A stretch of DNA of 58,822 nt from Euryarchaeota archaeon UBA10 (GCA_002498185.1 DAGO01000089.1:12118-70939); one strand, 5' to 3'; shown: positions 2,493 through 34,713, numbered from the stretch's first letter. The notes: generated by a model not told the origin, from the sequence alone. A program made the numbers and translations.

Positions 2493-3674
2493 ATGGCAGG
2501 AGATCTATCTTGGATGGAAGAAAGGTATGCACACCTAGAAGAACAATCGCTTCTGTGGCAACCACCAACTCTCGAAAGCGCAAATACTCCACGCTGTACG
2601 ATGGACGGCAAGCCTACAATTATGCTATCTGCTAACAATTATCTGAACCTCACGACCCATCCGAAGGTTGTCGAAGCTTCAATCGCAGCCACAAGAAAGT
2701 ACGGTGCGGGAAGTGGTTCAGTAAGAGCCATAGCCGGAACTATGGATATTCACTTGGAGGCAGAAAACAAAGTTGCCGAATTCAAAGGAGTTGAATCTTC
2801 GCTAATTTACTCTGCAGGCTACACTGCTAATGTCGGATTAATTCCTTCACTGGTACAAGGAAAGCAAGACATCATAATTTCTGATGAGTTAAACCATGGC
2901 TCAATCATCGACGGAGTTAGATTAACAAAGGCCCAGAGAGCTGTTTTCCCTCACAATGACATGGGTGCATTCGAACAAGTTCTGAAGGAAAATCAAGATG
3001 CGGAAAGGAAGTTGGTCATCGTTGATGGAGTGTTTTCCATGGATGGAGATATCTGTCCTCTTGATGAATTGACTGCACTTGCTGAAGAGTACAATGCGAT
3101 GGTTATGGTTGATGACTGCCACGGAGAGGGAGTTCTTGGAGATGGTGGGAGAGGTATCGTGGACCACTTCAAATTACAAGGAAGAGTAGACTTTGAAGTC
3201 GGCTCATTCTCAAAAGCACTCGGCGTTCAAGGTGGAATCCTTGCAGGAAAAGAAATCGTTAGGAAACATGCACTCAATCATTCTCGTTCTTGGCTGTTAT
3301 CTGGTTCACAACCACCTGGTGTTGCTGCGGCACAAAAGGCCGCTGTAGAGGTATTGATGGACGAGCCAGAACATCACGCAAGGCTCTGGGAAAATACCGA
3401 ATATTTCCGAAGTGAGATGCAATCTCTTGGTTTCGACACAGGTGTTTCAACCACCCCTATTATTCCTGTAATGTGTGGCGAATCCTCTGTCGCCAAAGGC
3501 CTGTCAAATGCGATGCTAAAGCAAGGTGTAATGGCTGGAGCAATTGTTTTCCCAATGGTTGCAAGGGACAAAGCACGTGTAAGAACTCAAATGTCTGCAG
3601 GCCTAACACGTGATGACTTAGATGAAGTTCTTCGAATATTTGAGAGCGCTGGAAAAGATGTCGGATTGATTTAA
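2493..3674 (+). CDS. kbl: glycine C-acetyltransferase / 2-amino-3-ketobutyrate CoA ligase (AONS-family PLP enzyme)
   Basis: Collinear with E. coli Kbl as I remember it: LSANNYLNLTTHP, ISDELNHGSIIDGVRL, VDGVFSMDGD, MVDDCHG, the PLP lysine in SFSKALG, and ARVRTQMSAG near the C-terminus. Start taken at MAGDLSW. Confidence 0.75.
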   Translation: MAGDLSWMEERYAHLEEQSLLWQPPTLESANTPRCTMDGKPTIMLSANNYLNLTTHPKVVEASIAATRKYGAGSGSVRAIAGTMDIHLEAENKVAEFKGVESSLIYSAGYTANVGLIPSLVQGKQDIIISDELNHGSIIDGVRLTKAQRAVFPHNDMGAFEQVLKENQDAERKLVIVDGVFSMDGDICPLDELTALAEEYNAMVMVDDCHGEGVLGDGGRGIVDHFKLQGRVDFEVGSFSKALGVQGGILAGKEIVRKHALNHSRSWLLSGSQPPGVAAAQKAAVEVLMDEPEHHARLWENTEYFRSEMQSLGFDTGVSTTPIIPVMCGESSVAKGLSNAMLKQGVMAGAIVFPMVARDKARVRTQMSAGLTRDDLDEVLRIFESAGKDVGLI

Positions 3675-4295
3675 TCACTCTTCTTCGGATTCAAACTCTT
3701 CGATGACTTCCATCAGCTCAGTGTCATCAGATTCTATCGAATCAGATTCCTGTTCCCGGAGATACTGTTTTGCCGGCATTTCTGCAAATGGACTAGTACC
3801 ATCTTCAATCATGCAAAGTAATCTCCACCTTGGCGCCCATGAAAGATGGATGTAAAGTGGCCCTGGAATCATAAGTAAACCCCATGACAAATATTGAGAG
3901 TAGGTATTGTTAGAGAGTAAATCAGTATGAATCAAAGTGATTAATGCAAAACCGATGAACGGCATTGGATAGAGTGCTTTCCTATTTACTGCAATTGGCA
4001 TTCGTTTGGTAAATGCGTTAACAATTCGGCTGAATATTCCCAAGAATGCAGTTGCGAAAATTAGCAAGCTAGCATGAAGTAACCAAAGAGGGAACCAAAA
4101 TTCTTCGGTCATTGCATAAGGAAGAATCAGCGCCAGGGAAACCAAAAAACCGTAAAATGCGCCTATATTTGACGGGTGAGATAACCAAAGGGGCAAGTTG
4201 GAAAATCGTTTTGATAGCCCTCCTCCTGTCAACAAATCGCGCTGTGATTCATCCAGCGAGGAGATGTCTCCGTCCCAGACTGAGTCTGCGGCCAT
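3675..4295 (-). CDS. hypothetical multi-pass membrane protein with acidic C-terminal tail
   Basis: 206-aa ORF with several hydrophobic helices. The tail is ESDDTELMEVIEEFESEEE. Confidence 0.4.
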   Translation of the reverse strand: MAADSVWDGDISSLDESQRDLLTGGGLSKRFSNLPLWLSHPSNIGAFYGFLVSLALILPYAMTEEFWFPLWLLHASLLIFATAFLGIFSRIVNAFTKRMPIAVNRKALYPMPFIGFALITLIHTDLLSNNTYSQYLSWGLLMIPGPLYIHLSWAPRWRLLCMIEDGTSPFAEMPAKQYLREQESDSIESDDTELMEVIEEFESEEE

Positions 4296-4359: not shown

Positions 4360-4977
4360 TCATTCATTTGCAAAGATACGAGAGATAGGTCCTTGTACGT
4401 CAATTTCCTCCTCTGGTAACCACTCTCTTTCGAGCAAAGTAGATTCTTGTGATTCTCTTTCACGGGCATCTTCAAATTCATCATTTGACCCATTGACCGC
4501 ATTATTCAGAGAGATTGCTTGATTGATTATGGCGAGGTGCTTATTGAGAACTGATTCTTTCAGATTTGTATCCCATACGGACAGAACCGACAGATCATCG
4601 TCTTGACGATGGATAACCCAGCATGAAAGTGAGTCTTTGGCTAACTTCAATCTATGATTACCAGGTTCTATCCAATTTTCCGAAAATTTGACCATGATTT
4701 CTGATTTTGAGACCGGTTCTGATTCCATGAAGGGGTGATTCAAGTTAACCGCTAATGGAATCTGAGCACTAGCAGAGATCAAACTACGGATTAGTAGCAC
4801 ATCTATGATAACCAACAAAACCGTAATCAGAAGCCAGTTAGCGGGCCAATATATCACTAATATTGCAAATGTTAGATTGATCACAGCAAGTGAAATCTTC
4901 ATGTTTTTAGTCGAATCGTTCAACTCTTTACCAAGAGGCGTATTCGAGAAAAGAATCAGCCCCTTTGGTGCGTCCAT
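4360..4977 (-). CDS. hypothetical membrane protein
   Basis: 205-aa ORF with two adjacent TM helices (ISLAVINLTFAILVIYWPANWLLITVLLVIIDVLLI) followed by a soluble domain. Alternative start at Met26 (4902). Confidence 0.4.
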   Translation of the reverse strand: MDAPKGLILFSNTPLGKELNDSTKNMKISLAVINLTFAILVIYWPANWLLITVLLVIIDVLLIRSLISASAQIPLAVNLNHPFMESEPVSKSEIMVKFSENWIEPGNHRLKLAKDSLSCWVIHRQDDDLSVLSVWDTNLKESVLNKHLAIINQAISLNNAVNGSNDEFEDARERESQESTLLEREWLPEEEIDVQGPISRIFANE

Positions 4978-5018: not shown

Positions 5019-6764
5019 ATGCATGATTTACCCCCATCATTCAAGAAGGGTGGAATTACGAACCACCCCGTAGGGGTGCCTATGGTCGAGTTGCCGAGAG
5101 GGAATATCATCGAGGAAAGACGCGGAGGTGCAGGCATTCTCGCAACCTTGGTCAATGAGATGGTAAAACTCAACTCGAGCGGATACATTCGTACTGAAAG
5201 AACACCCGCTGAAAAGATGCCGAGAGTTGGACAAGTCGTCGTAACTAGGGGGGAAGTCAGCGCCGCAATCCATGAAGATAAAGCGATTCTTGAAGGTGTA
5301 GAAGCACTGATTGAGATCGAAGCAGATTGCACTGAACTCGACTGCCTTATTCAGTTGATTGAAGATGTAGATGTTCAACGTATTCTGGACTTACATCCGA
5401 CGGCCAAACTTACTGTTGAGACTCCTGAAGAGAGCAAATCATCACAATGGTGGGAAAATATCAGCAATCGGAAAAATGCGTGGACAAAATCCAGCAAACT
5501 ACCAACGATTGAAGCAACTATTGAGGCGCCTGAGTTTGTCAAGGCCAAAGCAGCAGCAATGGTCCACAGACATGTCGAAATGGGCACTTCGCTCAAACCA
5601 GGAAGTGTTCATTCTAATGGAAGTGAAATGATTTTCCAACTCGCATCAAATCTGAAGAATCATGGCAAACCATTGTTGGTAATCAGCAGAAAATCCCGTG
5701 AAGAATTGATGGTTAATTTCAACATACCAGCAGAGAATAGCCTCTGGTTATCGCAGAAGGAAGGAGAAGGAGTACAATTCGTTGACATCGATGCGATAAA
5801 GGGCACAGTGTATGGTTTCTTGGAAGGCAACCTAAGAGCTGTTCTTCTCCTAGATGGTTTGGAATACCTCGCAAACATTTGTGGGAGCAAACCAGTTATC
5901 GAGATGGTTCGAGAACTCGGTGACAGGATGAGATACGAAGACGACTGTCTGTTGATATCATGCGATAAATCCGCATGGACCAAATCGGAAGCGGCTCAAC
6001 TCACGAGGGCTGCACCATACCTGGAAACCTCCGTCATTTCAGCATGGAATGCTGACCCGGATTCGCTATTGGACCACCCATTAATGGCACCTCCAACCGA
6101 AGAAGAATTGCTTCGTCTAACTGAATATCTGGAAGCAAACACTCCAGAATCATTTGTCCCCGAGGAAATCGTTGAGATTGTTCCAGAACCTGTAGAAGTT
6201 ATCGAAGAGATACCTATTGAGGTAGTCGAGGAGGAAATAATCATCACTGAGACGATACAAGAAGAAATCGTGGAAGAGGTTCCTGAAGTGGTTGAGTCAA
6301 AGGGTCCAAGGAAGCCACAACGAGTCAAGAGGCGTAGGTCAAAGCACGCCAAAGTAATGAGTGCTAGAGAAGCAGGTCTTGCTGGCCTTGCTGCAATTAA
6401 AGGCGACAGAGACATTGGAGATTTGCCGATGACAAAGTCCCTGCCGAAGACAGCCATAGGCGTTGGCAAAGAAGGTGCTATGCCATCGATTCCAAACACA
6501 ATCCCAACAGAATTGAATGATGCTGCTCGCCAAGATTCCGCAAAGAAATCTAGAAATTTACCAGAAACCAAACTTGGACCCAAGGCAGTAGGTGGAAAGA
6601 AAGCCGGTTCCAAAGGAAAGGTTGTCAGTCCATTAGCAGCACGTGGAGTCGAAATCAAGCGCAACATTGCAAAGAGATCTCAAGCATCTAGTGTCCCTCA
6701 GAAGGAATTGGATATTGACAAAGAACTTGAATCTTGGAAATTTAATGAGGAGGAGACAGAATGA
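5019..6764 (+). CDS. DUF835-like domain protein with acidic E/I/V block and basic tail
   Basis: 581-aa ORF. The segment KPLLVISRKS...RAVLLLDGLEYLANICGSKPVIEMVRELGDRMRYEDDCLLISCDKSAW resembles the DUF835 (PF05763) signature. It is followed by EEIVEIVPEPVEVIEEIPIEVVEEEIIITETIQEEIVEEVPEVVE and then KGPRKPQRVKRRRSKHAK. The stop overlaps the next start (ATGA at 6761-6764). Confidence 0.5.
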   Translation: MHDLPPSFKKGGITNHPVGVPMVELPRGNIIEERRGGAGILATLVNEMVKLNSSGYIRTERTPAEKMPRVGQVVVTRGEVSAAIHEDKAILEGVEALIEIEADCTELDCLIQLIEDVDVQRILDLHPTAKLTVETPEESKSSQWWENISNRKNAWTKSSKLPTIEATIEAPEFVKAKAAAMVHRHVEMGTSLKPGSVHSNGSEMIFQLASNLKNHGKPLLVISRKSREELMVNFNIPAENSLWLSQKEGEGVQFVDIDAIKGTVYGFLEGNLRAVLLLDGLEYLANICGSKPVIEMVRELGDRMRYEDDCLLISCDKSAWTKSEAAQLTRAAPYLETSVISAWNADPDSLLDHPLMAPPTEEELLRLTEYLEANTPESFVPEEIVEIVPEPVEVIEEIPIEVVEEEIIITETIQEEIVEEVPEVVESKGPRKPQRVKRRRSKHAKVMSAREAGLAGLAAIKGDRDIGDLPMTKSLPKTAIGVGKEGAMPSIPNTIPTELNDAARQDSAKKSRNLPETKLGPKAVGGKKAGSKGKVVSPLAARGVEIKRNIAKRSQASSVPQKELDIDKELESWKFNEEETE

Positions 6765-8512
6765 GACTTTCACACCGAGAGAAACTTCAACTCGCCCTAG
6801 CTAACGCCAGAGAAAGTCTAGGGAGAGATAACACTTCAACACAACCGGCGTTATCAAAATTGAACACACTTAGGGGAGTAAAAGAGGCGATTGATACCAG
6901 AGAAGGAAACCTCCTTTCCAGAACTGGAGTGAAGACCCGTCCCACCTTTGACATTGTTGCAGACCAGATCCTTGGAGAACCAACTTCTTGGAAGCCGAGT
7001 ATTGATTTGGATGAAGGAGAAAATTCGCTTTCTCAAATCGCTGCAAAACGAATCGGTGAAATGCGAGAGAGGCAAGAAATTGAGGAAGGAGAAGAAGAAT
7101 TGCTCGGGGAATCATTTGGCATGCTAAAGGATGGCAGGCCAATATGGGCAGAAGTTCTCGATACCCAGAGAGGATACTCTACTAATTTCACAGATTACGG
7201 TATGAAAGACCTAGCATTCAGGCCTTTGTGGCCCCCCGTTCAGAAACTCTCAGACCATAATACCTGGAAAAGTTGGCATGTTGTTGAAGAAAACTCACGT
7301 GCATCAATGGCCTGTGAAAAGGTAATTGAAAAGCCAGGAATCACGATGAATCCTCTACTAATTCTTGGGGACACAGGATGTGGCAAGTCCCACATCTTAA
7401 GCGCCTCAGTTCAAGCGATGATTCGCAGACAAGATGGCAACGTACACTTGTTATCGACATCGGCAATGAGAGGGTGGGAATCACTGCCTGATGGGTGGCA
7501 AGACGCTGTTGCGCATGCTAACCTAATCGCAATCGATGACCTCCACCTTGCTGATGAAAGAATTGCAACAGAACTTGGAATGATGATTGACTATGCTCTA
7601 AACATGGGCGTACAAGTTATTGCAACATCTAGAGTTGATTCTAATGAATGGCCAGCTCGCAGATTATGGGAAGTTATGCGTTCCGCTACGAGTGTCTGGA
7701 TTAGGAAACCTAGTTCCGCTTCTCTAATCACTCACTTACGACGTAATGCAGGAGGCAGAGCACTGCTCTTAGACGATGCAATGATTGCAAGAATCGTCAA
7801 GCATGGAGGAGGGGACTGGCGAAGCACTGATGCAGCATTTGAGAAAGTCGCTCTTGCAGTTGAATCTGGAGAGCGAATTATTTCCGGCGAGGATGTTACT
7901 AGTATTCTCGAAGAAGTACCTCAAGAAATGACCGAAGTAGAATTATTCACTGAGAGAGAAGACTTGGAAGAGATTGCTTCTCGAGTTATCAGCGAAACAC
8001 TTGACCACGTTTACACTGGAAGAGATGTCGCAGGAGTCGAATTGAACGTACCTGTTCCTGAACTAAGTGACGACTGGGAAGTTCCAGAACTCACGATTGA
8101 GGAAAAGGATGAATTGCATGAAGTGCTGACTAGCAGGAACCTCACACCGCATGTAACAACCACGCTGACTGTGGACGAAAGTGATGAATTCTTGGTTCAC
8201 AGAGATGACAATCTAGACGCGTTGGACCAAGTTCGAGTTGCTGAAACTACCTCTAGCATAGATTCAATCACTGACCAAATGTTCGAGAGAATGAGTAACG
8301 AACACATAGAGCAATCAAAGAAATTAGCCGAATTAGAACAAGAAATGTTCGACTTAGCAGATAGAAGCAGAGATGCATCTGTTGAAGAGTTAATCGAAAT
8401 CGCTGACCGAGTTGGAGAGATCGAAGTAATTCTTGGAAATGTGCAAGAGCATCCAAGCTATGCTATGCTTACTCCTGTCACTGTCTTGACACCAATAGGT
8501 GAAGAGGCATGA
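6761..8512 (+). CDS. DnaA/Hda-like AAA+ ATPase (no DnaA domain IV), acidic coiled-coil C-terminus
   Basis: Walker A NPLLILGDTGCGKSHIL (7367-7390 core) and Walker B NLIAIDDLH (7523-7546). Also GVQVIATSRVDSNEW (box VII-like Arg), RKPSSASLITHL, GGDWRSTDAAF (sensor-2-like Arg) and GERIISGEDV. The order is collinear with E. coli DnaA domain III as remembered. Confidence 0.6.
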   Translation: MRLSHREKLQLALANARESLGRDNTSTQPALSKLNTLRGVKEAIDTREGNLLSRTGVKTRPTFDIVADQILGEPTSWKPSIDLDEGENSLSQIAAKRIGEMRERQEIEEGEEELLGESFGMLKDGRPIWAEVLDTQRGYSTNFTDYGMKDLAFRPLWPPVQKLSDHNTWKSWHVVEENSRASMACEKVIEKPGITMNPLLILGDTGCGKSHILSASVQAMIRRQDGNVHLLSTSAMRGWESLPDGWQDAVAHANLIAIDDLHLADERIATELGMMIDYALNMGVQVIATSRVDSNEWPARRLWEVMRSATSVWIRKPSSASLITHLRRNAGGRALLLDDAMIARIVKHGGGDWRSTDAAFEKVALAVESGERIISGEDVTSILEEVPQEMTEVELFTEREDLEEIASRVISETLDHVYTGRDVAGVELNVPVPELSDDWEVPELTIEEKDELHEVLTSRNLTPHVTTTLTVDESDEFLVHRDDNLDALDQVRVAETTSSIDSITDQMFERMSNEHIEQSKKLAELEQEMFDLADRSRDASVEELIEIADRVGEIEVILGNVQEHPSYAMLTPVTVLTPIGEEA

Positions 8513-8973
8513 TGCGACCTTGGTGGATGTCAGGGGTTCCGTTTGCTTGTCAGCCAGACTGTGGAAAATGCTGTGATGAACCAGGAGGTATTGTTTACCT
8601 GCGTCCTATCGATGCCGAAGCATTAGCTTCACATCATGAAATGGAAGTTGAAGAATGGCTTGAGAGGGATTGTAGGCAAACACTTGATGGCAGATACATC
8701 TTGAACTCAGACCCCTACACTGACATCTGTATTTATCTCGATGAAGACAAGAAATGCACTGTCTACCAGTCACGGCCAGCACAATGCAGGTCATTCCCAT
8801 TCTGGGCTGAAAATGTGCGCTCACAGCGCTCATGGGAAAAGACGGTGAATAGTTGCCCTGGACTCGAATCAGAGGAGGCTTTCATCATTGATGGCAACAC
8901 AATTCGCAAGAAAATTATCGATGACAGAGATGCGACTAGAGGCTTTAGAGAATGGCCCCCAAAACGCAGATGA
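8509..8973 (+). CDS. YkgJ-family (UPF0153) cysteine-cluster protein
   Basis: CQPDCGKCCDEPGG...ICIYLDEDKKCTVYQSRPAQCRSFPFW is the C..C..CC ... C.iy..RP..CR.fP signature. The start overlaps the upstream stop (ATGA at 8509-8512). Confidence 0.75.
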   Translation: MMRPWWMSGVPFACQPDCGKCCDEPGGIVYLRPIDAEALASHHEMEVEEWLERDCRQTLDGRYILNSDPYTDICIYLDEDKKCTVYQSRPAQCRSFPFWAENVRSQRSWEKTVNSCPGLESEEAFIIDGNTIRKKIIDDRDATRGFREWPPKRR

Positions 8974-9003
8974 TAGATTTTTATTTCAGCGTAATTTCAG
9001 TAA

Positions 9004-9043
9004 AAAACACTAGGTGTTCTAAAACACACCATAAGGGTGTTTT
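9004..9043. promoter_or_regulatory. two adjacent AACAC/GTGTT inverted repeats upstream of citrate synthase
   Basis: AACAC-TAG-GTGTT lies at 9006-9018 and AAAACAC-N9-GTGTTTT at 9021-9043. They sit ~65-100 nt upstream of the TTG start at 9107, downstream of a T5 run (8978-8982) that follows the ykgJ-like stop. Confidence 0.3.
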
Positions 9044-9106
9044 GTTGCGAAAAACAGCGTCGCCCTTATACCGTGGTGGCTTTTCCCTAGGTCCGGTGGT
9101 GAATTC

Positions 9107-10273
9107 TTGGCTGATGAAGAGTCGTTGTTGGAATTGACTACTGCCCACCTCAATATTGGTATGAGAGGCGTTCCAGTTGGAACTTGTAGAACGTCCTTCG
9201 TAACTCCTACTGAAGGAGTTCACTATTGTGGATACCCGATTAGTGAACTAGCCATGATGTCACCTGAAGACATCATTTATCTTCTATTCAACAAGGATTT
9301 ACCAAACATAGAGCAATCTGTAGAGTTTAGAGAAGATTTGCAATCCAGAGGCGAGCTTCCTTCCGGCGTGGAAGAAGTCCTTGCCACCCTACCAAGAGAC
9401 GGCCATCCAATGGACTGGCTCTCAATTGGCATTCACACATTAGGAATGCTAGGTGGTGTTGACGATTGGAAAGAAGATGCAATGAATCTTATCGCTAGGA
9501 TGCCGAGATTAATGGGATTAATTTTCAGATATCGCGAGGGTCGAACAGAGAACATTCCTAGTGATGATTTGACACTACCTTTGGTTGGAAGATTCACTAA
9601 CACTCTTGATTTGGATAATGTTGACAAAGCAGTAATGAACAGAGTTCTGTCTACTTACCTAGTCCTCCACATGGACCACGGTGGAGGTAATTTGTCGACA
9701 TTCACAGGCAAAGCTGTAGCAAGCGGTCACGCAACAGTCTACTCTTCAATGGCAGGAGCAATGAATGCTCTTTCCGGTCCACTGCACGGCAGAGCAAACC
9801 AGTCGTGTTTTGAATTCGTTAAGCGCATTGGCACATCAGACCCTGCCGAAGTTGAGAGATTTGTCAGAGGAGAACTTGAGGCGAAGAGGCCTGTATTCGG
9901 ATTCGGGCATGCTGTTCTGCGTGCTGAAGATCCAAGAGCCACTGTACAATTCGCTTTAGGGGAAGAAATCTGCCCAGATGATGAGTATTACAGAATCATT
10001 CGAGTTCTGCGCCAAATTGCTCCAATGGTACTTTCAGAGAATCCAAAAATCAGCAATCCAAACGCAAACGTAGACATCGCAAGTGGAACCTTGCTAAACT
10101 ATGTTGGACTGCAGGACCCTGAATACTACACTACATTCTTTGGATGGGCAAGAGTTGCAGGAATTGGTGCACAGATTGTAGACGAGAGAACGGTAATGCG
10201 CAACGGGAAAGGAATCCCAATTTACCGACCAAAATACATCGCAGAAGAACAAACTCTGCGTCACATTGACTGA
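9107..10273 (+). CDS. gltA: citrate synthase
   Basis: GVHYCGYPISELA, LVLHMDHGGGNLSTF, LSGPLHGRANQ, PVFGFGHAVLRAEDPRA and NVDIASG are the citrate synthase catalytic blocks. Only a TTG start (9107) is available upstream of the conserved N-terminal block. Confidence 0.85.
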   Translation: MADEESLLELTTAHLNIGMRGVPVGTCRTSFVTPTEGVHYCGYPISELAMMSPEDIIYLLFNKDLPNIEQSVEFREDLQSRGELPSGVEEVLATLPRDGHPMDWLSIGIHTLGMLGGVDDWKEDAMNLIARMPRLMGLIFRYREGRTENIPSDDLTLPLVGRFTNTLDLDNVDKAVMNRVLSTYLVLHMDHGGGNLSTFTGKAVASGHATVYSSMAGAMNALSGPLHGRANQSCFEFVKRIGTSDPAEVERFVRGELEAKRPVFGFGHAVLRAEDPRATVQFALGEEICPDDEYYRIIRVLRQIAPMVLSENPKISNPNANVDIASGTLLNYVGLQDPEYYTTFFGWARVAGIGAQIVDERTVMRNGKGIPIYRPKYIAEEQTLRHID

Positions 10274-11334
10274 ATAACAGGTCGTGCTGTCTTCCCACAG
10301 CCACGGTGACCAATCATTCTGACTGCCTTCCAACCCAATTGTTCATCGCTAATCTCGTGCCATGGAGCAACATCTTCTGGCGCAATACCTTTACTGAGGT
10401 CATTCCATTGTTCATCAGACAAAGGCATAGTAGCAGGTCTCATCCACCGACTACTTCCACATGGCAACACCATTGATGGGTCGGGGTAATCTGTTAGTAT
10501 TGACAATCCAGCACCCAATAAGTCTCTCTCCATATATGGGTGTCCTGGCCACACATAAACAGGATAATCTCCCAAAATTTTTCTTAATCTGTCCAATTGA
10601 CGTCCTTTGAGCCCTACTGGCCTGCCAAGGTGTAAATAGCGTTTGATTCCTTCAAAGTAATCAACCGCACAAGGCATCATTGGAGCACCAGAACTCTTCT
10701 GCTCATTCATCAAACGATTGAACGAGTAAGCTACGAATTGAGGAAGAGCCCTAATCCTCTTGCTGTTGTGCGAACCAGTTCTAGGTACAACTGGCAATAG
10801 TCTTGACCACGGGCGATTAGAGCCTGATAATTTTGCAACTTTTTTCATCGGCTTATGGAATGCATAGAACACCGCCGCCTCATTGTGAATACCAGCATCG
10901 TCCACCATTTCACTAGCAAGTTCCATTATTCGGGCCATCCTTTTAGTGGGCTCCTTTTCGATGGAAGGCAGGCATCTCTTAATTTCCAAACATGCGACCT
11001 TGGAATGTTCTTGCCAAGGCACTAACCATTCTTTGTCAGCCATCAATTTCTCAAAAGAACAAAATCCGATTTCTTCTAATTCCGCTAAATTCCACTCCTC
11101 AACAATTTTTGGTCGGCCATCCAATTTTTCTTTTGGAATCGAAACCGTGTGGTCGTGATGAACCACTAATTGGTCATCTGCTGTTAAGCGTAAGTCGAAT
11201 TCGACGCCATCCATAATTTGCATAGCCTTCACTAAGGAAGCATGCGTATTTTCTGGATGCTGAACAAACGCCATTGGTTTGGCTTGAAACGATTTCATTA
11301 TTGAATCATGTGCCGGAAATTGAAACCGGCCCAA
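10261..11334 (-). CDS. glycerophosphodiester phosphodiesterase (GDPD) family protein
   Basis: FVQHPENTHASLVKAMQIMDGVEFDLRLTADDQLVVHHDHTV matches the GDPD ENT...E.D..lT.D...Vv.HD block, with YPVYVWPG further on. The start is uncertain (Met at 11334, 11298 or 11274). Confidence 0.6.
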   Translation of the reverse strand: MGRFQFPAHDSIMKSFQAKPMAFVQHPENTHASLVKAMQIMDGVEFDLRLTADDQLVVHHDHTVSIPKEKLDGRPKIVEEWNLAELEEIGFCSFEKLMADKEWLVPWQEHSKVACLEIKRCLPSIEKEPTKRMARIMELASEMVDDAGIHNEAAVFYAFHKPMKKVAKLSGSNRPWSRLLPVVPRTGSHNSKRIRALPQFVAYSFNRLMNEQKSSGAPMMPCAVDYFEGIKRYLHLGRPVGLKGRQLDRLRKILGDYPVYVWPGHPYMERDLLGAGLSILTDYPDPSMVLPCGSSRWMRPATMPLSDEQWNDLSKGIAPEDVAPWHEISDEQLGWKAVRMIGHRGCGKTARPVIQSM

Positions 11335-11365
11335 CTATCATAAGCGGTGAAATTCAGTGCGAGGC

Positions 11366-13129
11366 ATGGCAGAAGACCAACGCGTACGAGGATATTGTGC
11401 ATATGATTGGGGTAAGAGCGCTTTCGAGACATCGGTAACAACAGCAGTATTCCCGGCATGGTTCGCATATCTATTCGCTGAAGCAAACGGAATCTCAACG
11501 AAAATCCTAGGTTCAGAATGGACAGCAGATGCTATGTTTTCCGGTGCAGTAATGATTGGTGCATTGCTTGTAGCAATTTGTGCACCTTCCCTTGGAGTGA
11601 TTGCTGACCGAAGAATGATCAAAATTTGGTGGTTGCGAACACTAACCTGGGTTGGTGCAATTTCATGTGTACTTCTTGCACTATCTCCTTACTTGGGGGT
11701 TTCAATAGCATGGATTTGGGCGACAATCATGTTCATGATTGCAAATGTTGGTCTGAATGGAGCAGGTGTGTTTTACAATGCACTGCTACCACACATGGGT
11801 GATGAATCTGAAATGGATTCTATCTCAAACAAGGCCTTTGCTGCAGGATACCTCGGCGGTGGAATATTACTTGTTGTTCACTTAGGGATGGTTTTGAGTC
11901 TTGATGGTGGATGGGTCATTCCTTTCGTCATGGCATCCTCTGGATTGTGGTGGCTAGGATTCGCTCAAATGACTTTCAGAATGGTTCCAGAACCTCACAT
12001 TGAAGACGAGATGGAACCAATGGGGTTAATCGCATCAACAAAGATGGCTTTGGGAGAAGTGATTTCCACATTAAAGGACATCAAGAGTTTCAGAACCTTA
12101 TTCTTCTACATGCTAGCATACTTCTGTTTCATTGATGGAATCAACTCTGTAACAGCTCTTGCAGGAGTGTTCGGAATTGTTGTTCTTGGATTAACAACAA
12201 CTGGGCTAATCATGACGATAGTTATCATTCAATTCGTTGCGGCTCCCGCTGCGATTGGATTTACGAAATTAGCAGACAAATGGGGCACCAAGAAAGCACT
12301 GCAATTTTCTCTAGTTTGCTGGTGTGTAGTGATCATCGGAGCACTATCTTTCGCACCTTTGGAATTAGAAAAGCACGAAGAATATGACATTCAATATACA
12401 TGGGACGCGGATGAGGGTGCGTATTTTGTTGAGGCACGAGAAGGAGTAAACAACATCGCAGCATTACCGGATGACGATGAACAAAAGTGGGCTCTGGATT
12501 ATGAAGAAATCCTACCCGTTCAACAAAACAAAGACGTTAAGCGACAGGGTTATGCTGTCGAATGGGCATTTGATGATGATGGAGCACCAATCTCAATGCA
12601 AGTTAATCTAACTGAATCAACTATGGCCGCATTCAAGGCATCTATGGATGACTCAAGATTCTCCTACAGTGTTGAAGGAGGAGAACTAGAGGATATGGTC
12701 GTTGGAGAGAACCATCCGACCAGCCTTGGAGACGGAATGCTAGATTTCATTCCCGACACAGCTCGAGACTGGATTTGGGCACCTCTTGGAGTTACCGTGT
12801 TCTTCCAATTCTTGCTGCTCGGGGCATTCGCAGGAGCTCTGCTAGGCGGTTCACAAGGACTCGCTCGCTCGATGTTCGGACAGATGGTTCCAGAAACTCG
12901 ATCGGCTGAGTTCTTCGGATTCTTCGGGTTCTTCGGAAAGGTTGCGGCATTACTTGGCCCACTAATCTATGCATTGATGACTGTCTGGTTCGATTCAAGA
13001 GTCGGTATTTTCGCTATCTCTCTACTGATTGTAGCCGGTGCATTGCTACTGAGAAAGGTCGATGTCGAAGATGGTATCGCCGTAGCAAAAGCAGAGGATG
13101 AAAGAAACCGTTCTAGCGCTGCGGAGTGA
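11366..13129 (+). CDS. MFS transporter, UMF1/Atg22-like family
   Basis: YCAYDWGKSAFETSVTTAVFPAWF at the N-terminus is typical of the UMF1 family. About 12 hydrophobic helices surround a large central hydrophilic loop. Confidence 0.65.
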   Translation: MAEDQRVRGYCAYDWGKSAFETSVTTAVFPAWFAYLFAEANGISTKILGSEWTADAMFSGAVMIGALLVAICAPSLGVIADRRMIKIWWLRTLTWVGAISCVLLALSPYLGVSIAWIWATIMFMIANVGLNGAGVFYNALLPHMGDESEMDSISNKAFAAGYLGGGILLVVHLGMVLSLDGGWVIPFVMASSGLWWLGFAQMTFRMVPEPHIEDEMEPMGLIASTKMALGEVISTLKDIKSFRTLFFYMLAYFCFIDGINSVTALAGVFGIVVLGLTTTGLIMTIVIIQFVAAPAAIGFTKLADKWGTKKALQFSLVCWCVVIIGALSFAPLELEKHEEYDIQYTWDADEGAYFVEAREGVNNIAALPDDDEQKWALDYEEILPVQQNKDVKRQGYAVEWAFDDDGAPISMQVNLTESTMAAFKASMDDSRFSYSVEGGELEDMVVGENHPTSLGDGMLDFIPDTARDWIWAPLGVTVFFQFLLLGAFAGALLGGSQGLARSMFGQMVPETRSAEFFGFFGFFGKVAALLGPLIYALMTVWFDSRVGIFAISLLIVAGALLLRKVDVEDGIAVAKAEDERNRSSAAE

Positions 13130-22686: not shown

Positions 22687-24126
22687 ATGAGAAGGACAAG
22701 AGTAGTGGCCACTGTCGGTCCATCTTCTTGGGACCCTACAACTCTACAGTCTATTTTTGATGCCGGTGCTGATGTATTTCGGCTGAACTATTCACACGGA
22801 GAACCAGAACAAAAGACAGAGTTGTATGAAAGAATCCGTTCAATGGAAACCGAACAACGCAAGACCTGCATCTTGGCTGATTTGCCGGGTCCAAAACTCC
22901 GTCTGGGTGAGTTTGATGGAGTTAAATCACTCAATAATGGTGAATCGATAAGATTACTTTGCGGAAAAATGGAACATGATGGCGAAGAAATTCCTGTTGA
23001 ATATGATGGACTATCTGCGGATTTAAAACCGGGTGATTCAATCCTAGTTGCTGATGGATTAATCAGATTGTCAGTTACAAAAACAGGCGGGGAAAAGGGC
23101 TCGTTCATCGACTGTCTTGTAGAAGATGGAGGACCGGTAACCAGTAGAAAGGGAATCAACTTACCAGGCAATACAATCGATTTACCGGCTATTGGCGAGA
23201 AAGACAAATTAGCTCTAGACCACGCACTGAAAACTGGTGCTGATTGGATTGCAGTATCTTATGTACGAAGTGCAGAAGATTTGCGTCCCGCAAAAGATGC
23301 TGTCAAGGCTGCTGGATTACATACTCCAATTATTGCCAAAATAGAACATCCTGCAGCTTTACAAAATCTGCACTCTATTCTTGACGTCGCAGATGCAGTA
23401 ATGGTTGCTCGGGGAGATTTGGGAGTAGAGATACCTCTGGAAAAAGTACCATTAGCTCAACAGAAAATTATCGATGCAGGTTTGATGCGTGGCATGGTAG
23501 TGATTGTCGCTACTCAAATGCTTGAATCAATGACACTGAACCCTAGACCAACACGTGCAGAAGTCAGTGATGTATCGACTGCAATTAGACACGGAGGAAC
23601 TGCCGTCATGTTATCTGGTGAAACCGCATCTGGCAAGCACCCTGTTGCGGCAGTAGAAACAATGGTAAAAATCGCAACTGCGACAGAAGAAGGACTGGAC
23701 TCCTCAGGAGGAACACCAGGAGTTCTATCCAAGTTCCGTTCGACTAGAGCTGTCGCTCATTCGGGGGTTGAACTTGCCAGGGCAGCAAGCGCCAAACACA
23801 TAATCGTAGCAACCCAACACGGTAATGCTCCCCGACTAGTAACTGGATACAGGCCAGACGTGGTTGTGACTGCTGTGACAGATCGTATTCGAGCTGCTCG
23901 CAGAATGAACCTACTACCCGGAGTAAAATCTGTAATCGTCAAAGAGCACGAGAGAGGTTCCAAAACCATGCAGAATGCGATCAGAGAGATTGCTAAAGAT
24001 GGAACCATCAAATCTGGAGATAGAATTGTGGCAATTTCAGGTTCTCCACAAGCAATGCGTGGAGCGACTAGTACTGTCAGATTATATCGTTTGGAATCGG
24101 ATGGAAGTATTTCTGGAACAGAGTGA
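22687..24126 (+). CDS. pyk: pyruvate kinase
   Basis: RRTRVVATVGPSS, FRLNYSHG, ADLPGPKLR, IIAKIEH, MVARGDLGVEIP, TQMLESM and MLSGETA are canonical pyruvate kinase blocks. Confidence 0.9.
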   Translation: MRRTRVVATVGPSSWDPTTLQSIFDAGADVFRLNYSHGEPEQKTELYERIRSMETEQRKTCILADLPGPKLRLGEFDGVKSLNNGESIRLLCGKMEHDGEEIPVEYDGLSADLKPGDSILVADGLIRLSVTKTGGEKGSFIDCLVEDGGPVTSRKGINLPGNTIDLPAIGEKDKLALDHALKTGADWIAVSYVRSAEDLRPAKDAVKAAGLHTPIIAKIEHPAALQNLHSILDVADAVMVARGDLGVEIPLEKVPLAQQKIIDAGLMRGMVVIVATQMLESMTLNPRPTRAEVSDVSTAIRHGGTAVMLSGETASGKHPVAAVETMVKIATATEEGLDSSGGTPGVLSKFRSTRAVAHSGVELARAASAKHIIVATQHGNAPRLVTGYRPDVVVTAVTDRIRAARRMNLLPGVKSVIVKEHERGSKTMQNAIREIAKDGTIKSGDRIVAISGSPQAMRGATSTVRLYRLESDGSISGTE

Positions 24127-27092
24127 CACCAAGACGCTTTTTTCTGCGCAAGGTTCAATGCTGGAGTTCCATGTCGATGGCCATGGGTCTTAATCCTGTG
24201 AATGGTATATTGGTCGCCACCGGCCTGATATTGGTATCTCTCAATCTGGCATTAGCGTCTTATGCAACCGGCGAAGTTCCTGCTGCTGTAGAAGAAGCCG
24301 TTGCGATGAAAGTTAAGGACGATATTTGCGAAAATACTCTTTGTACTGAAGTAAGTGAAGACTGGTCTGAATCGACCTCGCAAAGAGATTTCTTTGCATG
24401 GCACATAACTAATGTCGACGAGGTAATAATGGATAATGCAGAGCCTATTTATGAAAAAATTGGCCCTGTAACTTATGATGTCACTCTCAAGCGGGAAGTC
24501 GATAATTATGACATTAAGAATGGGCTATTGACATACAAACAATTGACATCATATTCATGTTCTGAAGATACCTTAGTACCATGCTCAACAGAGGTTAGCC
24601 AATTGAATATCGCGTTTAACCCACAGGTAGTTGGAGCCACTGGAACCGCAATCAACGCTGTCATGGACATTACCAAAACGGGATTCGTATCTGGAGTTGT
24701 TGGAATACACTTGAAACAAGTAACAGCAGCTCAGGCTGTTGCGGATGAAATCCAATATGAACACATGGCCAATCTAGCCGCTGTTGAAGGCCCAGGTGAC
24801 ATCTACATCATCGATACTGAGATGCATAATTCTGCTGAATCTTATTTCCTCGAGGGGATGTTTGAAGCGTTTAATGATGCATATGGCGACGCATTCCTAG
24901 ATGATGACACTAAGACTTACCTGAGCGAAGGCGGAGTTGACCCTCGCTGGGTTGATGGAGTTTGGAATGACGACGGAGATGGCATTCTAGAGCCAGATGA
25001 AGAGTGGGGAGGTTTCAACGAAACAGGAGCTCGAATTGGGGACTTGAACGGAAACGGAATCATCGATAATGAATCCAGCAGCTTCGTTTCCACCTTGAAT
25101 CTAGATTATGCATTCTATGAAGCAGTAGGTCCTGACGGAGAGAACCTATCCCTTGTCAATTACATGGGCCCTCTGGTTTACGCTGCAATGGGTGAGCCTG
25201 ATTCATTAGAATTCATCCAAGAAAATCCTGAAGAATCTGTCACACTCGAGCGTGCAGAATTGTGGAATTTCGCACATCCTACAGACCTAAACATCACACT
25301 AGCAAGAGATTGGACACTTTATGGAGGAATGGGTGCATTGATGCTTGACTACGGGGCAGGCAATGATGATTACCTAACCGATTATTCAGAAGACGGAGTC
25401 AACCTTTCGGTAAGAGTTGAACGCCTATTTGGTATCGAAATGGATGATGCTGTTGCCTCAGATGTTCTTACTATGGGTGATGGCACTGACGAGCCATTGG
25501 GAATTTTGGCAGTCAGCGAGTCAGGGACTTCATTCGGATTAACTGAATTCCTAGAAATGGATCAAACCACTGCGGTCGAAACCTACGGAGTAACTGGATA
25601 CCAGCACCAAGTTTTGAAGAAATTTTGTAACGACTGGATGGATAACGTCGCAACTCTACCACTGATTCTAGTTGGTGGAGAGGGCTACATATCTGCATCT
25701 CAGTTCGTCAACCAAACATTCGGTTCCGTAAATCCAATCGACAATGAGTACATGGAGTACTCACTCAATATTGGAGGAATGTGGGGTACTGGAACATATG
25801 GCTTCCCAGCTGGAGACCCGATCGACTTAACACAAGAACAGAGTTCTGAAATGCTGTACGGTGATTGGGGCCTAACTACTGCAAAGGGCGCAAGTATGTT
25901 CCTTTATGGTGAGTTGAGCGGCAAAACTTTGCCGATCAATTATTCAACCGAGGAAAGGACTGAGGCTAAAGAGTGGACAAATGAAACAGTTGCTGAGATA
26001 TATGGAATCGATGTTGAGGCTGCTGGTGCAGCAAGGCTACTAATGATGGAAGTAGTGTTCAAAAATTTCGTTCCCGACTTCCTAATTGATTCATTTGGAA
26101 CCAGTAAGTATCTCACACAACCTGTTGACAACTGGCTATTAGGCTGGCATGACCCTGTGAATGCATATTTGGCGACAGGTGATTCTGAAAATATGACCGC
26201 TGGCTGGACTAGCCTTGAAGCGAATGAAACATTCTTTGGTTCTGCTGCATATGTTGAGGGGGGAATATCTACAGGTGACCCTGCTAAAATCACGATTTGC
26301 ACAGGCGAGGCTGATTCCTGTGACAAGGGAGAAACCGTACAGGTTGGAGACAGCGAGTATGTAAGTTGGAGAAACAAGTCAAAGGAAAGTGCAACCTACG
26401 GATTGATTAACGCCGAATTGCAAAGTGAAACCACTGGCGGATTCATCACAGGAGATGGCGACAAAATTGACTTATCGGGATACGGAACTGCTGATGTGAA
26501 GTGTGAGAAAGAAAGCACTCTCAAAGGAATTCCTGTAGACGTATGTACTGCTTCTATGGATCCATTGGAAAGATCAATACAAGCCAAACTAATCAACAGC
26601 GGAGATCTCCTCGATGCTATCCCCGGCGCACTACCAGTGTTCTTTGGAAGCGATGTCGAAATCAAAGTCGAACAGTTGAGTGGAGCAATTATTGGCGGTA
26701 AATCGGAATCAACATTCTGGCTGGATACTAGAAACATCACAGACCAAAAAACCCCTCCTGAAATGTCTGATTTGCAAGAGGTATTCGTCATCAAGACTGC
26801 AGCAGAACTGGACGATGAAACTGCGGAATCTATGGAATCTCAAATCGTCACGAATCAAGACTTCTTTGCATTCTTTACTAACTTTGACCATTGGTCAGAT
26901 TATGTTGCTCTTAGCTTATGGATTGGAGGGTTTACCTCGCTCCTAATTGGTGCAGCATTAATTTTCAAGGGGGATAGCAAGGAAGTTTCTGGTTCAAAAT
27001 GGGGAGACGAACCTGAATCTACTGATTTCACTGGTGAAGTCAAGAAAGAACTCGATGAACCCAATGAAGAACCTCAACCAGAGGAATTATGA
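24123..27092 (+). CDS. CD36/LIMP-2 (scavenger receptor class B)-like two-TM surface protein with large insertions
   Basis: TM helices sit at both ends ([36 protein letters not shown]). Collinear motif matches to human CD36 as remembered: [32 protein letters not shown] vs [44 protein letters not shown] vs [22 protein letters not shown] vs VNLKGIPVYRF. The start is uncertain (GTG at 24123 overlapping the pyk stop, or ATG at 24171). Confidence 0.5.
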   Translation: [989 protein letters not shown]

Positions 27093-32521: not shown

Positions 32522-32650
32522 TGCCGGGAGCGGGGCTTGAACCCGCGACCTTCGGATGTCTCAGACATGTGAAGGGGCTTTGGTACGTCACAAAAAGTTC
32601 CTTAGAACTGCCCTATGAGTCCGACGCGCCACCAACTACGCCACCCCGGC
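32522..32650 (-). tRNA. elongator tRNA-Met (anticodon CAT) with 56-nt intron at position 37/38
   Basis: Minus-strand read: GCCGGGG-TG-GCGT-AGTTGGTG-GCGC-G-TCGGA-CTCATA[56-nt intron GGGCAG...CTGAGAC]A-TCCGA-AGGTC-GCGGG-TTCAAGC-CCCGC-TCCCGGC-A. G1:C72 and an anticodon stem without GGG/CCC argue for elongator rather than initiator. Intron TGAG can pair with anticodon-loop CTCA, and GGGC pairs with GCCC, which is compatible with a bulge-helix-bulge. Confidence 0.85.
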
Positions 32651-34666: not shown

Positions 34667-34713
34667 AGCCGAAAGGAAACTATACCCCCTCCTTCAGTGG
34701 GAGTGTGAGCCCC

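Follow-up and report, generated by a model that had tools for sequence, protein, structure and literature searches.

A conserved gene pair for DUF835 and DnaA/Hda-like AAA+ proteins, with a variably linked Cys-cluster gene, in Poseidoniales

The window analysed here is the whole stretch of 58,822 nucleotides from Euryarchaeota archaeon UBA10 (GCA_002498185.1 DAGO01000089.1:12118-70939). ORF calling recovers three co-directional ORFs, all on the + strand: p1 (5019-6764), p2 (6761-8512) and p3 (8509-8973). An earlier note on this DNA had described these ORFs and joined them by ATGA stop/start overlaps. Both overlaps are present, at 6761-6764 (p1/p2) and 8509-8512 (p2/p3). The three domain assignments of that note hold as well: DUF835, Bac_DnaA and CxxCxxCC all score above the Pfam gathering thresholds. 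The genes and the parts of their products are:

5082..6764, + strand: p1, 560 aa from M22 (581 aa with the alternative start at 5019)
5103-5393, + strand: N-terminal alpha/beta domain of p1, residues 29-125 (581-aa numbering), from the structure model
5586-6068, + strand: DUF835 domain of p1, residues ~190-350 (581-aa numbering), from Pfam and the model
p1 residues 351-581 (581-aa numbering): hypervariable, disordered tail, acidic/basic
6761..8512, + strand: p2, 583 aa
p2 residues 1-160: family-specific N-region with an invariant W129
7238-7915, + strand: AAA+ core and lid of p2, residues ~160-385, with Walker A GDTGCGKS (203-210) and Walker B D259-D260
8219-8443, + strand: C-terminal region of p2 with a helical hairpin, residues 487-561, from the structure model
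8509..8973, + strand: p3, 154 aa, CxxCxxCC (YkgJ-type)

The match of p1 to Pfam DUF835 (PF05763) reaches 66 bits for a gathering threshold of 33.1 (E 4e-18) and covers 126 of 136 model positions. Its homologues carry the PF05763 annotation throughout. The structure model has a pLDDT of 80-90 in both the N-terminal domain and DUF835, and Foldseek matches it weakly to KaiC CI, RecA, FlaH (4yds) and PH0250 (E ~1e-3, TM 0.4-0.5). A Walker A motif (GxxxxGK[ST]) is absent from p1 in every lineage; in the window the corresponding loop reads VHSNGSEM, which is neither glycine-rich nor lysine-bearing. Hence the Pfam score, the lack of Walker A and the weak fold match agree with the earlier description of the domain as P-loop-less and KaiC/RecA-like. 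The N-terminal domain has a predicted beta-alpha-beta4-alpha-beta-alpha topology. No REC domain was found among 16 N-domains scanned at E <= 10, and neither PAS nor any other sensor domain is recognisable in this part of p1. The charged tail that follows DUF835 is hypervariable and spans 200-750 aa across homologues.

For p2, profile and fold lead to the same family, as the earlier note had proposed: a DnaA/Hda-type AAA+ protein. The Bac_DnaA profile (PF00308) scores 33.1 bits for a gathering threshold of 23 (E 8e-8). The AAA+ core is modelled with a pLDDT above 90, and its best PDB match in Foldseek is domain III of B. subtilis DnaA (8bv3_A; TM 0.82, rmsd 2.9 A, E 6e-13). Further fold matches are 2z4r, 1l8q and Hda (3bos/5x06). 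The protein keeps the signature TF..W...EN..A....NPL.I.G..G.GKSH, the Walker B DD, the sensor-1 T/S and the SRL box VII. Across 119 sequences, however, the Walker-A lysine K209 is variable (85 K, 27 R, 3 G, 3 C and 1 T), so that 34 of them (~29%) have it replaced; the window protein itself has GKS. Walker B (D259-D260) is found in 116 of the 119, R327 in 118, R301 of the SRL motif in 98 and R354 in 103. The DnaA-type switch that the earlier note saw in p2 is a plausible role.

The family assignment invites the idea that p2 is a true bacterial-type initiator or helicase loader, which takes over or duplicates origin firing in Marine Group II (MGII), with p1 as a degenerate DnaB/RecA-like partner. 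The p2 core is indeed closest to DnaA domain III, the pairing of a DnaA-clade protein with a RecA fold resembles DnaC-DnaB, and MGII independently acquired a bacterial gyrase (PMC3914693). However, we consider this idea very unlikely. Neither DnaA domain IV (PF08299) nor domain I (PF11638) was detected in p2 at E <= 1, whereas bacterial DnaA matches from the same search do carry both. The scores of p2 stay far below the equivalog cut-offs for DnaA (TIGR00362: 51.6 bits, E 8e-14, trusted cut-off 343.9) and Hda (TIGR03420: 44.1 bits, E 2e-11, cut-off 194.8). Many lineages have lost the Walker-A lysine, the proposed partner p1 has no P-loop, and MGII possess Cdc6/Orc1 (PMC3914693). The neighbourhood of the trio showed neither replication genes nor an intergenic region resembling an origin; the flanking intergenic regions measure only ~100-130 bp and contain no repeat-rich stretch.

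A box VII arginine finger (R301) on an AAA+ protein without a detected DNA-binding domain is the combination that marks Hda, and p2 has it. The N-terminal beta-clamp-binding motif of Hda, QL[SD]LF, is missing from p2: the window has KLQLAL, and other family members in the alignment do not consistently share its Q.

The third protein, p3, scores 43.7 bits with PF03692 (gathering threshold 23, E 5e-11). It has eight invariant cysteines (C14, C18, C21, C22, C74, C83, C93 and C116), each present in at least 70 of 71 unique homologues. A sequence search among PDB chains found no relatives of p3, and in the literature we found no established function for the PF03692 family. Of the trio it is the slowest-evolving member, much slower than p1 and p2.

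Sequence elements outside the domains lie at the borders and junctions of the unit:

5040..5052, + strand: upstream box TTCAAGAAGGGTG, ~30-40 nt 5' of the probable p1 start, conserved across lineages
5064..5078, + strand: perfect palindrome CACCCC-GTA-GGGGTG, 3 nt upstream of ATG 5082
6747..6755, + strand: SD-like GAGGAGGAG for p2, within EEE codons at the p1 C-terminus
8498..8507, + strand: SD-like GGTGAAGAGG for p3, within GEE codons at the p2 C-terminus
8976..8986, + strand: T-run TTTTTATTT, directly after the p3 stop
9064..9070, + strand: TATA-like box CTTATAC, which belongs to the citrate synthase gene downstream and signals a new transcription unit

The left boundary has to be moved. The earlier note began p1 at 5019, behind a divergent spacer of ~40 bp, but the start is probably ATG 5082 (M22), which gives a spacer of ~104 bp. 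In the homologue alignment most p1 proteins start at the residue equivalent to M22, residues 1-21 are disordered in the structure model, and 5040-5078, first taken as coding, is non-coding and conserved, and it contains both a promoter-like box and a palindrome.

Within this ~104-bp region the conserved parts are a TTCAAGAAGGG box and a CACCCC-N3-GGGGTG palindrome. The box can be recognised in lineages with p1 identities between 94% and ~38%, and it takes a degenerate form in the most divergent ones. Its distance to the start resembles that of the invariant CTTATAC box of citrate synthase, and it is likely to be the promoter element of the operon. The palindrome is unique within the window (0.08 expected); 59 of 99 loci have exactly one copy, located 5' of p1 on the + strand. 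Its arms are fixed while the centre varies (GTA/AAA/TAC). The RNA folding energy is not significant (z = -0.9). The palindrome may serve as an operator or form a hairpin that sequesters the SD. Together, box and palindrome offer a defined cis-regulatory target.

At the right end, the earlier note saw a T-run followed by palindromes. Both are there: the T-run is a candidate archaeal termination signal, and short inverted repeats lie downstream of the p3 stop (for example 9021-9027/9037-9043). But terminator-like hairpins in the region do not exceed the shuffled expectation (6 found vs 4.2 +/- 2.5). The CTTATAC box upstream of citrate synthase is better evidence for the right end of the operon than the hairpins. 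It forms the sole invariant columns in a spacer alignment of nine lineages, including one without p3.

The junctions recur well beyond the window. Overlaps of 4 nt are found in 63 of 78 related loci for p1/p2 and in 59 of 77 for p2/p3, and this recurrence places them beyond chance. A purine run, SD-like and inside the upstream gene, accompanies 65 of the 69 overlapping p1/p2 junctions. At the other junction, a GEE[EA] tail of p2 is common where p3 overlaps; where p3 is missing the tail is absent and replaced by IDKN/LNPI. The overlaps with embedded SDs therefore support the translational coupling that the earlier note had proposed. Its stronger form, an obligatory stoichiometric co-production of all three proteins, is not general, because p3 is inverted in four divergent lineages and in one named Thalassarchaeaceae locus, and is absent from one sublineage.

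DUF835 precedes the DnaA-like gene, in the same direction, in 78 of 78 loci, and p3 is co-directional in 69 of 77. Hence only the p1-p2 pair is invariant, and the link to p3 is not general. p1 and p2 also diverge at matching rates over the full identity range (96/96, 75/76, 50/51, 38/38).

The trio does occur outside the source genome, at related loci. All source-named homologues, however, belong to Poseidoniales (MGII) and sit at a single syntenic housekeeping locus adjoining citrate synthase. With one order and one locus, we are looking at a single orthologous operon and not at a recurrent, independently assembled system. Furthermore, throughout the order the trio has conserved neighbours: an aminotransferase, two membrane genes, citrate synthase, GDPD, MFS and TatC. 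This block of ~15 kb is syntenic across the order, so that the adjacency of the trio alone is weak evidence.

Could the arrangement then be mere synteny, with independent genes, or with p1 and p2 linked and p3 an unrelated housekeeping gene? The conserved neighbours would suit such an account, as would the change of strand or loss of p3 in some lineages and its much slower evolution. We nevertheless find it improbable. The 4-nt overlaps with their embedded SDs are kept down to ~25-38% identity, and the trio is retained down to 25-26% p2 identity. Where p3 is inverted, it still lies 4-23 bp from the p2 stop. The trio also stays intact at three loci with changed flanks (L017, L018, L102). At L017 the left flank is replaced and p1-p2 is not split; extra genes are inserted, and p3 remains with p2 and not with citrate synthase.

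Defence systems often contain AAA+ and KaiC-like ATPases, so that an anti-virus system or the remnant of a mobile element would be another way to explain the unit. PADLOC does return weak matches for p2 (mad8 at E 1.3e-4, HerA at E 4e-3), but they reflect the P-loop in general, and neither p1 nor p3 has a match. This single locus is fixed and order-wide, with housekeeping synteny and uniform GC, quite the reverse of what a variable island would show. We found no sign of defence or of a mobile element there, and we give this explanation next to no chance.

A more serious contender, although still unlikely, is a signalling module unrelated to DNA. p1 would be an iKaiC-type adaptor with a sensing N-domain, p2 an AAA+ effector and p3 a redox or metal sensor, all within a KaiC-centred archaeal network. 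In archaeal response regulators, DUF835 is classed as an output domain of the inactivated KaiC (iKaiC) type, and Methanomicrobia and Thermoplasmata carry it fused to REC/PAS (Galperin et al. 2018, PMC5847659). In p1 an N-terminal alpha/beta domain precedes DUF835, p3 has its eight cysteines, the unit has a conserved, putatively regulatory palindrome specific to p1, and L017 has an inserted gene for a KaiC-like ATPase beside the trio. Yet the N-domain is not recognisable as a sensor, no kinase or KaiC ATPase is consistently near the trio across the loci compared, and the nearest relatives of p2 are DnaA and Hda, not signalling ATPases.

The explanation we favour, to which we give a little less than even confidence, is an order-specific core operon of Poseidoniales that encodes a stoichiometric complex of an AAA+ switch and an iKaiC scaffold, together with a metal-cluster accessory. 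The cell would produce p1 and p2 at a constant ratio, and the two would assemble into a complex, in which the AAA+ module of p2, with nucleotide bound, may dock onto the inactive KaiC-like domain of p1. p2 would then act as a nucleotide-dependent switch or arginine-finger donor, not as a motor or a reader of DNA sequence, because ~29% of the sequences dispense with the Walker-A lysine, whereas the family retains Walker B, sensor-1 and the conserved arginines. The complex could be tethered to its target by the long charged tails, in which basic patches are conserved. p3 may bind metal (Zn or Fe-S) and serve as an accessory or sensor. In co-directional lineages (the majority of the sample, including the Poseidoniaceae window) its translation would be coupled, and where inverted it would be expressed separately.

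The weakest step of this scheme is the process itself. Control of chromosome replication or of the cell cycle, beside the resident Orc1/Cdc6, would be our choice because p2 descends from DnaA/Hda. The ancestry of p2 is the one tie of the unit to replication.

An unlikely extension is that the order domesticated a bacterial DnaA/Hda-clade AAA+ protein and, with an inactivated KaiC and a metal-cluster protein, built a new module of replication or cell-cycle control. If so, p2 could be an Hda-like arginine-finger donor acting on Orc1/Cdc6, or a nucleoid-tethered switch, and the module would be a hybrid, with initiator control of bacterial logic and a scaffold of the archaeal KaiC type. An order-wide, coupled pair of DnaA/Hda-like and inactive KaiC-like proteins would be a new case of bacterial parts in archaeal regulation. 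Few archaea of the surface ocean are as abundant as Poseidoniales (Marine Group II). We know of no cultured representative, and conserved lineage-specific operons are therefore one of the rare ways into their cell biology. The p1-p2 pair is a concrete, testable one for heterologous biochemistry.

The earlier note knew of no system with this combination, and the searchable literature is in line with that: we found no paper describing DUF835, DnaA-like and Cys-cluster proteins together. Profile searches assign none of the three genes to a characterised pathway. In the replication papers retrieved, DnaA is the initiator of bacteria and Orc1/Cdc6 that of archaea, and no archaeal protein of the DnaA/Hda family is mentioned.

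Among known systems, Hda and DnaA domain III belong by profile and fold to the same AAA+ subfamily as p2, and Hda, like p2, lacks DNA-binding domain IV. However, Hda has ~230 aa, whereas p2 has 583, with an additional family-specific N-region of 160 aa and a C-region of 200 aa that contains a helical hairpin. p2 further differs in its scores far below the equivalog cut-offs, its variable Walker-A lysine, its archaeal host without a beta clamp and its coupling to a DUF835 protein. To our knowledge, archaea have neither a beta clamp nor DnaA.

ArlH/FlaH-ArlI and DnaB-DnaC offer an analogy for the way p1 and p2 might work together: in them, as possibly in p1-p2, a KaiC/RecA-family protein meets an oligomeric P-loop ATPase. 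In these pairs of a RecA-fold protein and a hexameric ATPase, the RecA-fold member docks its nucleotide-bound AAA+/ATPase partner. DnaC is a DnaA-clade AAA+ protein, and FlaH (4yds) is among the structural matches of p1. In contrast, ArlI has no homology to p2, FlaH and DnaB bind ATP whereas p1 has no nucleotide-binding motifs, and no motility or helicase genes lie near p1-p2.

Known REC-DUF835 proteins share with p1 a KaiC/RecA-like DUF835 behind an N-terminal, input-like domain; the DUF835 of p1 has no P-loop. Unlike them, p1 has an N-domain that is not REC/PAS and a 200-750-aa charged tail, and it is always paired with a DnaA-like AAA+ protein, a pairing unreported for other DUF835 proteins. 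Finally, p3 shares the CX3CX2CC motif and the distal cysteines of the YkgJ/CxxCxxCC family (PF03692, UPF0153), eight of them invariant in p3, and differs from the family at large in being tied to a specific operon.

Three adjacent genes form what we firmly conclude to be an order-specific core operon: p1 encodes a DUF835 protein, p2 a DnaA/Hda-like AAA+ protein and p3 a CxxCxxCC (YkgJ-type) protein. The invariant unit of this trio is p1-p2. The p3 gene is a persistent third member that is bound less tightly to the operon.

5019-6764, + strand: p1 open reading frame (ORF), DUF835, from the start chosen in the earlier note
6761-8512, + strand: p2 ORF, Bac_DnaA
8509-8973, + strand: p3 ORF, CxxCxxCC

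The ATGA overlaps that the earlier note described are present at both junctions, p1/p2 and p2/p3. The domains it named are equally sound, since every Pfam match exceeds its gathering threshold (DUF835 in p1 with 66 bits, Bac_DnaA in p2 with 33.1 bits, CxxCxxCC in p3 with 43.7 bits). All three proteins fall into domain families that are known, and automatic database annotation already calls p2 a 'DnaA/Hda family protein'. In the literature we searched, neither archaeal DnaA/Hda-family proteins nor their pairing with DUF835 nor the trio are described.

The window is a piece of chromosome from a Poseidoniaceae archaeon of Marine Group II (MGII). The full-length p2 family is narrow. Searched exhaustively, 1.84 billion representatives yield 37 below 1e-30; beyond these, matches cover the AAA+ core alone and belong to bacterial DnaA and tandem-DnaA proteins. 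All homologues with a named source come from Poseidoniales, MGII or 'Euryarchaeota archaeon'. At ten genome loci of close relatives, whose p2 is 67-98% identical, synteny extends over the entire block of aminotransferase, two divergent genes for membrane proteins, p1, p2, p3, citrate synthase, GDPD and MFS.

For the wider neighbourhood, members at 25-31% identity and 80 metagenome loci were classified together. Because this sample is skewed to abundant Poseidoniaceae, the fractions refer to loci retrieved, not to lineages. Outside this genome, the three-gene unit of the earlier note stands for the p1-p2 pair, with p1 upstream of and co-directional with p2 in 78/78 assessable loci, but only in part for p3, which is inverted or missing in some lineages. 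The p1/p2 junction is -4 nt in 63 of the 78 loci, -8 or -14 in 2, +2 in 6 and +17 to +91 in 7. The p3 gene is co-directional in 69/77 loci (59 with a -4 junction). In four divergent lineages (L011, L014, L017, L018) it is inverted, yet only 4-23 bp separate it from the p2 stop, and it is missing from four loci of a single sublineage (L007, L008, L057, L062). At L102, a named Thalassarchaeaceae locus outside these counts, p3 is inverted and p1 and p2 overlap by 4 nt. Even at L017, where the left flank has been exchanged and a two-gene insertion separates p3 from citrate synthase, the trio is still together.

Several neighbours deserve mention in their own right. Between the trio and citrate synthase, L017 carries a gene for a 240-aa KaiC-like ATPase (10683-11405; AAA_25, ATPase, DUF7125). 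In the window, two divergently transcribed, membrane-protein-like ORFs of ~205 aa, 3675-4295 (-) and 4360-4977 (-), have no Pfam or PADLOC match; such ORFs adjoin p1 in most Poseidoniales loci and are absent from L017. The divergent loci L011-L015 have a 143-148-aa gene with a weak TerB match just 5' of p1 on the same strand (3003-3504), which has no counterpart in the window.

Two elements lie upstream of p1, and their conservation is far above neutral expectation.

5040-5052: upstream box TTCAAGAAGGGTG (also given as TTCAAGAAGGG), recognisable order-wide
5064-5078: perfect palindrome CACCCC-GTA-GGGGTG, 3 nt 5' of ATG 5082

The palindrome occurs as a single copy in the window, against 0.08 expected, and is found exactly once, 5' of p1, in 59/99 related loci, with invariant arms and a variable centre. 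Most p1 homologues start at the equivalent of M22 (MVELP...; numbering of the 581-aa version from 5019, so that M22 is ATG 5082), and M22, V23 and E24 are nearly invariant. Residues 1-21 are disordered in the structure model, and what the earlier note read as codons 8-20 is conserved non-coding DNA. Hence, the true start of p1 is most likely 5082, and the divergent spacer is then ~104 bp instead of the ~40 bp first proposed.

The palindrome could be a candidate operator or a hairpin that sequesters the Shine-Dalgarno (SD) sequence. Folding of the p1 leader RNA is not significant (z = -0.9), thus the hairpin role is not favoured over the putative DNA operator. A sigma-70 promoter scan showed no enrichment, and the sigma-70 model is irrelevant for an archaeal host.

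The right end had been described as a T-run plus palindromes closing a self-contained operon. The T-run is indeed there, directly 3' of the p3 stop; a scan for hairpin terminators showed no enrichment. For citrate synthase, an invariant CTTATAC box of its own lies ~37 nt 5' of the start. Upstream of this box, the p3-citrate synthase spacer (9009-9070) contains a conserved ACTAGGTGTT...ACACC inverted repeat. Box and repeat probably serve citrate synthase as promoter and regulatory site.

SD-like runs are embedded in the coding sequence before both internal junctions.

6747-6755, + strand: SD-like run GAGGAGGAG within EEE codons at the p1 end
8498-8507, + strand: SD-like run GGTGAAGAGG within GEE codons at the p2 end

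A purine run of this kind precedes the p2 start in 65/69 overlapping p1/p2 junctions. In loci without p3, p2 ends in IDKN or LNPI instead of GEE[EA]. Together with the embedded runs, this swap indicates that the acidic C-terminal 'motifs' are at least partly dual-coding.

The p1 protein consists of an N-terminal alpha/beta domain (residues 29-125), the DUF835 domain and a charged tail that varies from ~200 to ~750 aa across homologues and retains a basic patch. No Pfam family matches the N-terminal domain (taken as residues 22-135) on the window sequence. Among 16 diverse p1 N-domains, the scan returned DUF4388 once (E 0.12), DUF2226 once (E 0.26) and nothing else, and a profile search against the PDB yielded TATA-binding protein (E ~1). 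A DUF4388-like identity is therefore unsupported. The DUF835 domain has weak structural matches to KaiC CI, RecA, FlaH and PH0250 (E ~1e-3) and lacks Walker A in every lineage compared.

For p2, the nearest NCBIfam models are DnaA (8e-14) and Hda (2e-11), with scores ~150-290 bits under their equivalog cut-offs. The AlphaFold2 model has pLDDT >90 across residues ~160-385 and superimposes on domain III of B. subtilis DnaA with TM 0.82 and an rmsd of 2.9 Å; Thermotoga and Aquifex DnaA and Hda also match, all ahead of RuvB and RFC. The family retains the sensor-1 T/S and, before the P-loop, the DnaA/Hda signature. The N-terminal region is modelled with low confidence and holds short invariant motifs (W129), and the C-terminal region ends with a confident helical hairpin (residues 487-561). 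The nearest outgroups in the representative search are 520-1170-aa proteins, each containing a tandem pair of Bac_DnaA-type ATPase domains (P0186, P0188-P0190, P0196, P0197, P0199, P0206, P0211).

Among 119 family members, the Walker B DD is conserved in 116, R301 in 98, R327 in 118 and R354 in 103. The Walker-A lysine position holds K in 85, R in 27 and G, C or T in 7. This combination of a variable lysine with conserved Walker B and arginines argues, at the sequence level, for a binding or arginine-donor role of p2 rather than a motor.

The slowest-evolving member of the trio is p3, with eight invariant cysteines. Sequence searches against PDB chains found no solved relative of p3 and no match for p1 or p2. 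A literature search on YkgJ returned expression lists only and no characterised relative of p3. At L016, the called p3 (8743-9129) is just 128 aa long and lacks the N-terminal CX3CX2CC, which may reflect an erroneous start call, a frameshift or a genuine truncation.

Elsewhere in the window, a 989-aa ORF at 24123-27092 (+) matches the CD36 family in Pfam (46 bits, gathering score 26.5). CD36, a scavenger-receptor/LIMP family, is typical of eukaryotes, hence an archaeal match is unexpected. Downstream of a giant 3017-aa ORF (34705-43758, +) lies an 861-aa ORF (43807-46392, +) that includes a bacterial Ig-like (Big_1) domain; both probably encode large surface or adhesin proteins. A tRNA gene at 32522-32650 (-) is Rfam positive and was missed by ARAGORN; its length of 129 nt implies an intron.

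A defence-system or mobile-element origin of the trio was rejected. We infer an AAA+ switch (p2) with an inactive protein of RecA fold (p1) as its partner. The p1 and p2 products would form a stoichiometric complex, and the inactive KaiC-like domain of p1 would serve as docking platform for the DnaA/Hda-type nucleotide switch of p2.

Which process this switch serves is the weakest step. Descent of p2 from DnaA/Hda suggests replication or cell-cycle control, for which we found no support in the gene neighbourhood. A serious rival is signalling of the KaiC-hub kind; Galperin et al. (PMC5847659) count DUF835, as an inactivated KaiC, among the output domains of archaeal response regulators. The p2 protein is unlikely to be a true initiator: it has no detected DNA-binding domain, its P-loop is variable and MGII retain Cdc6/Orc1 (PMC3914693).

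The trio matters through the ecological importance of its host and the unexpected ancestry of p2. Compared to bacterial DnaA, p2 shares the fold of domain III but differs in domains I and IV, neither of which Pfam detects in p2.
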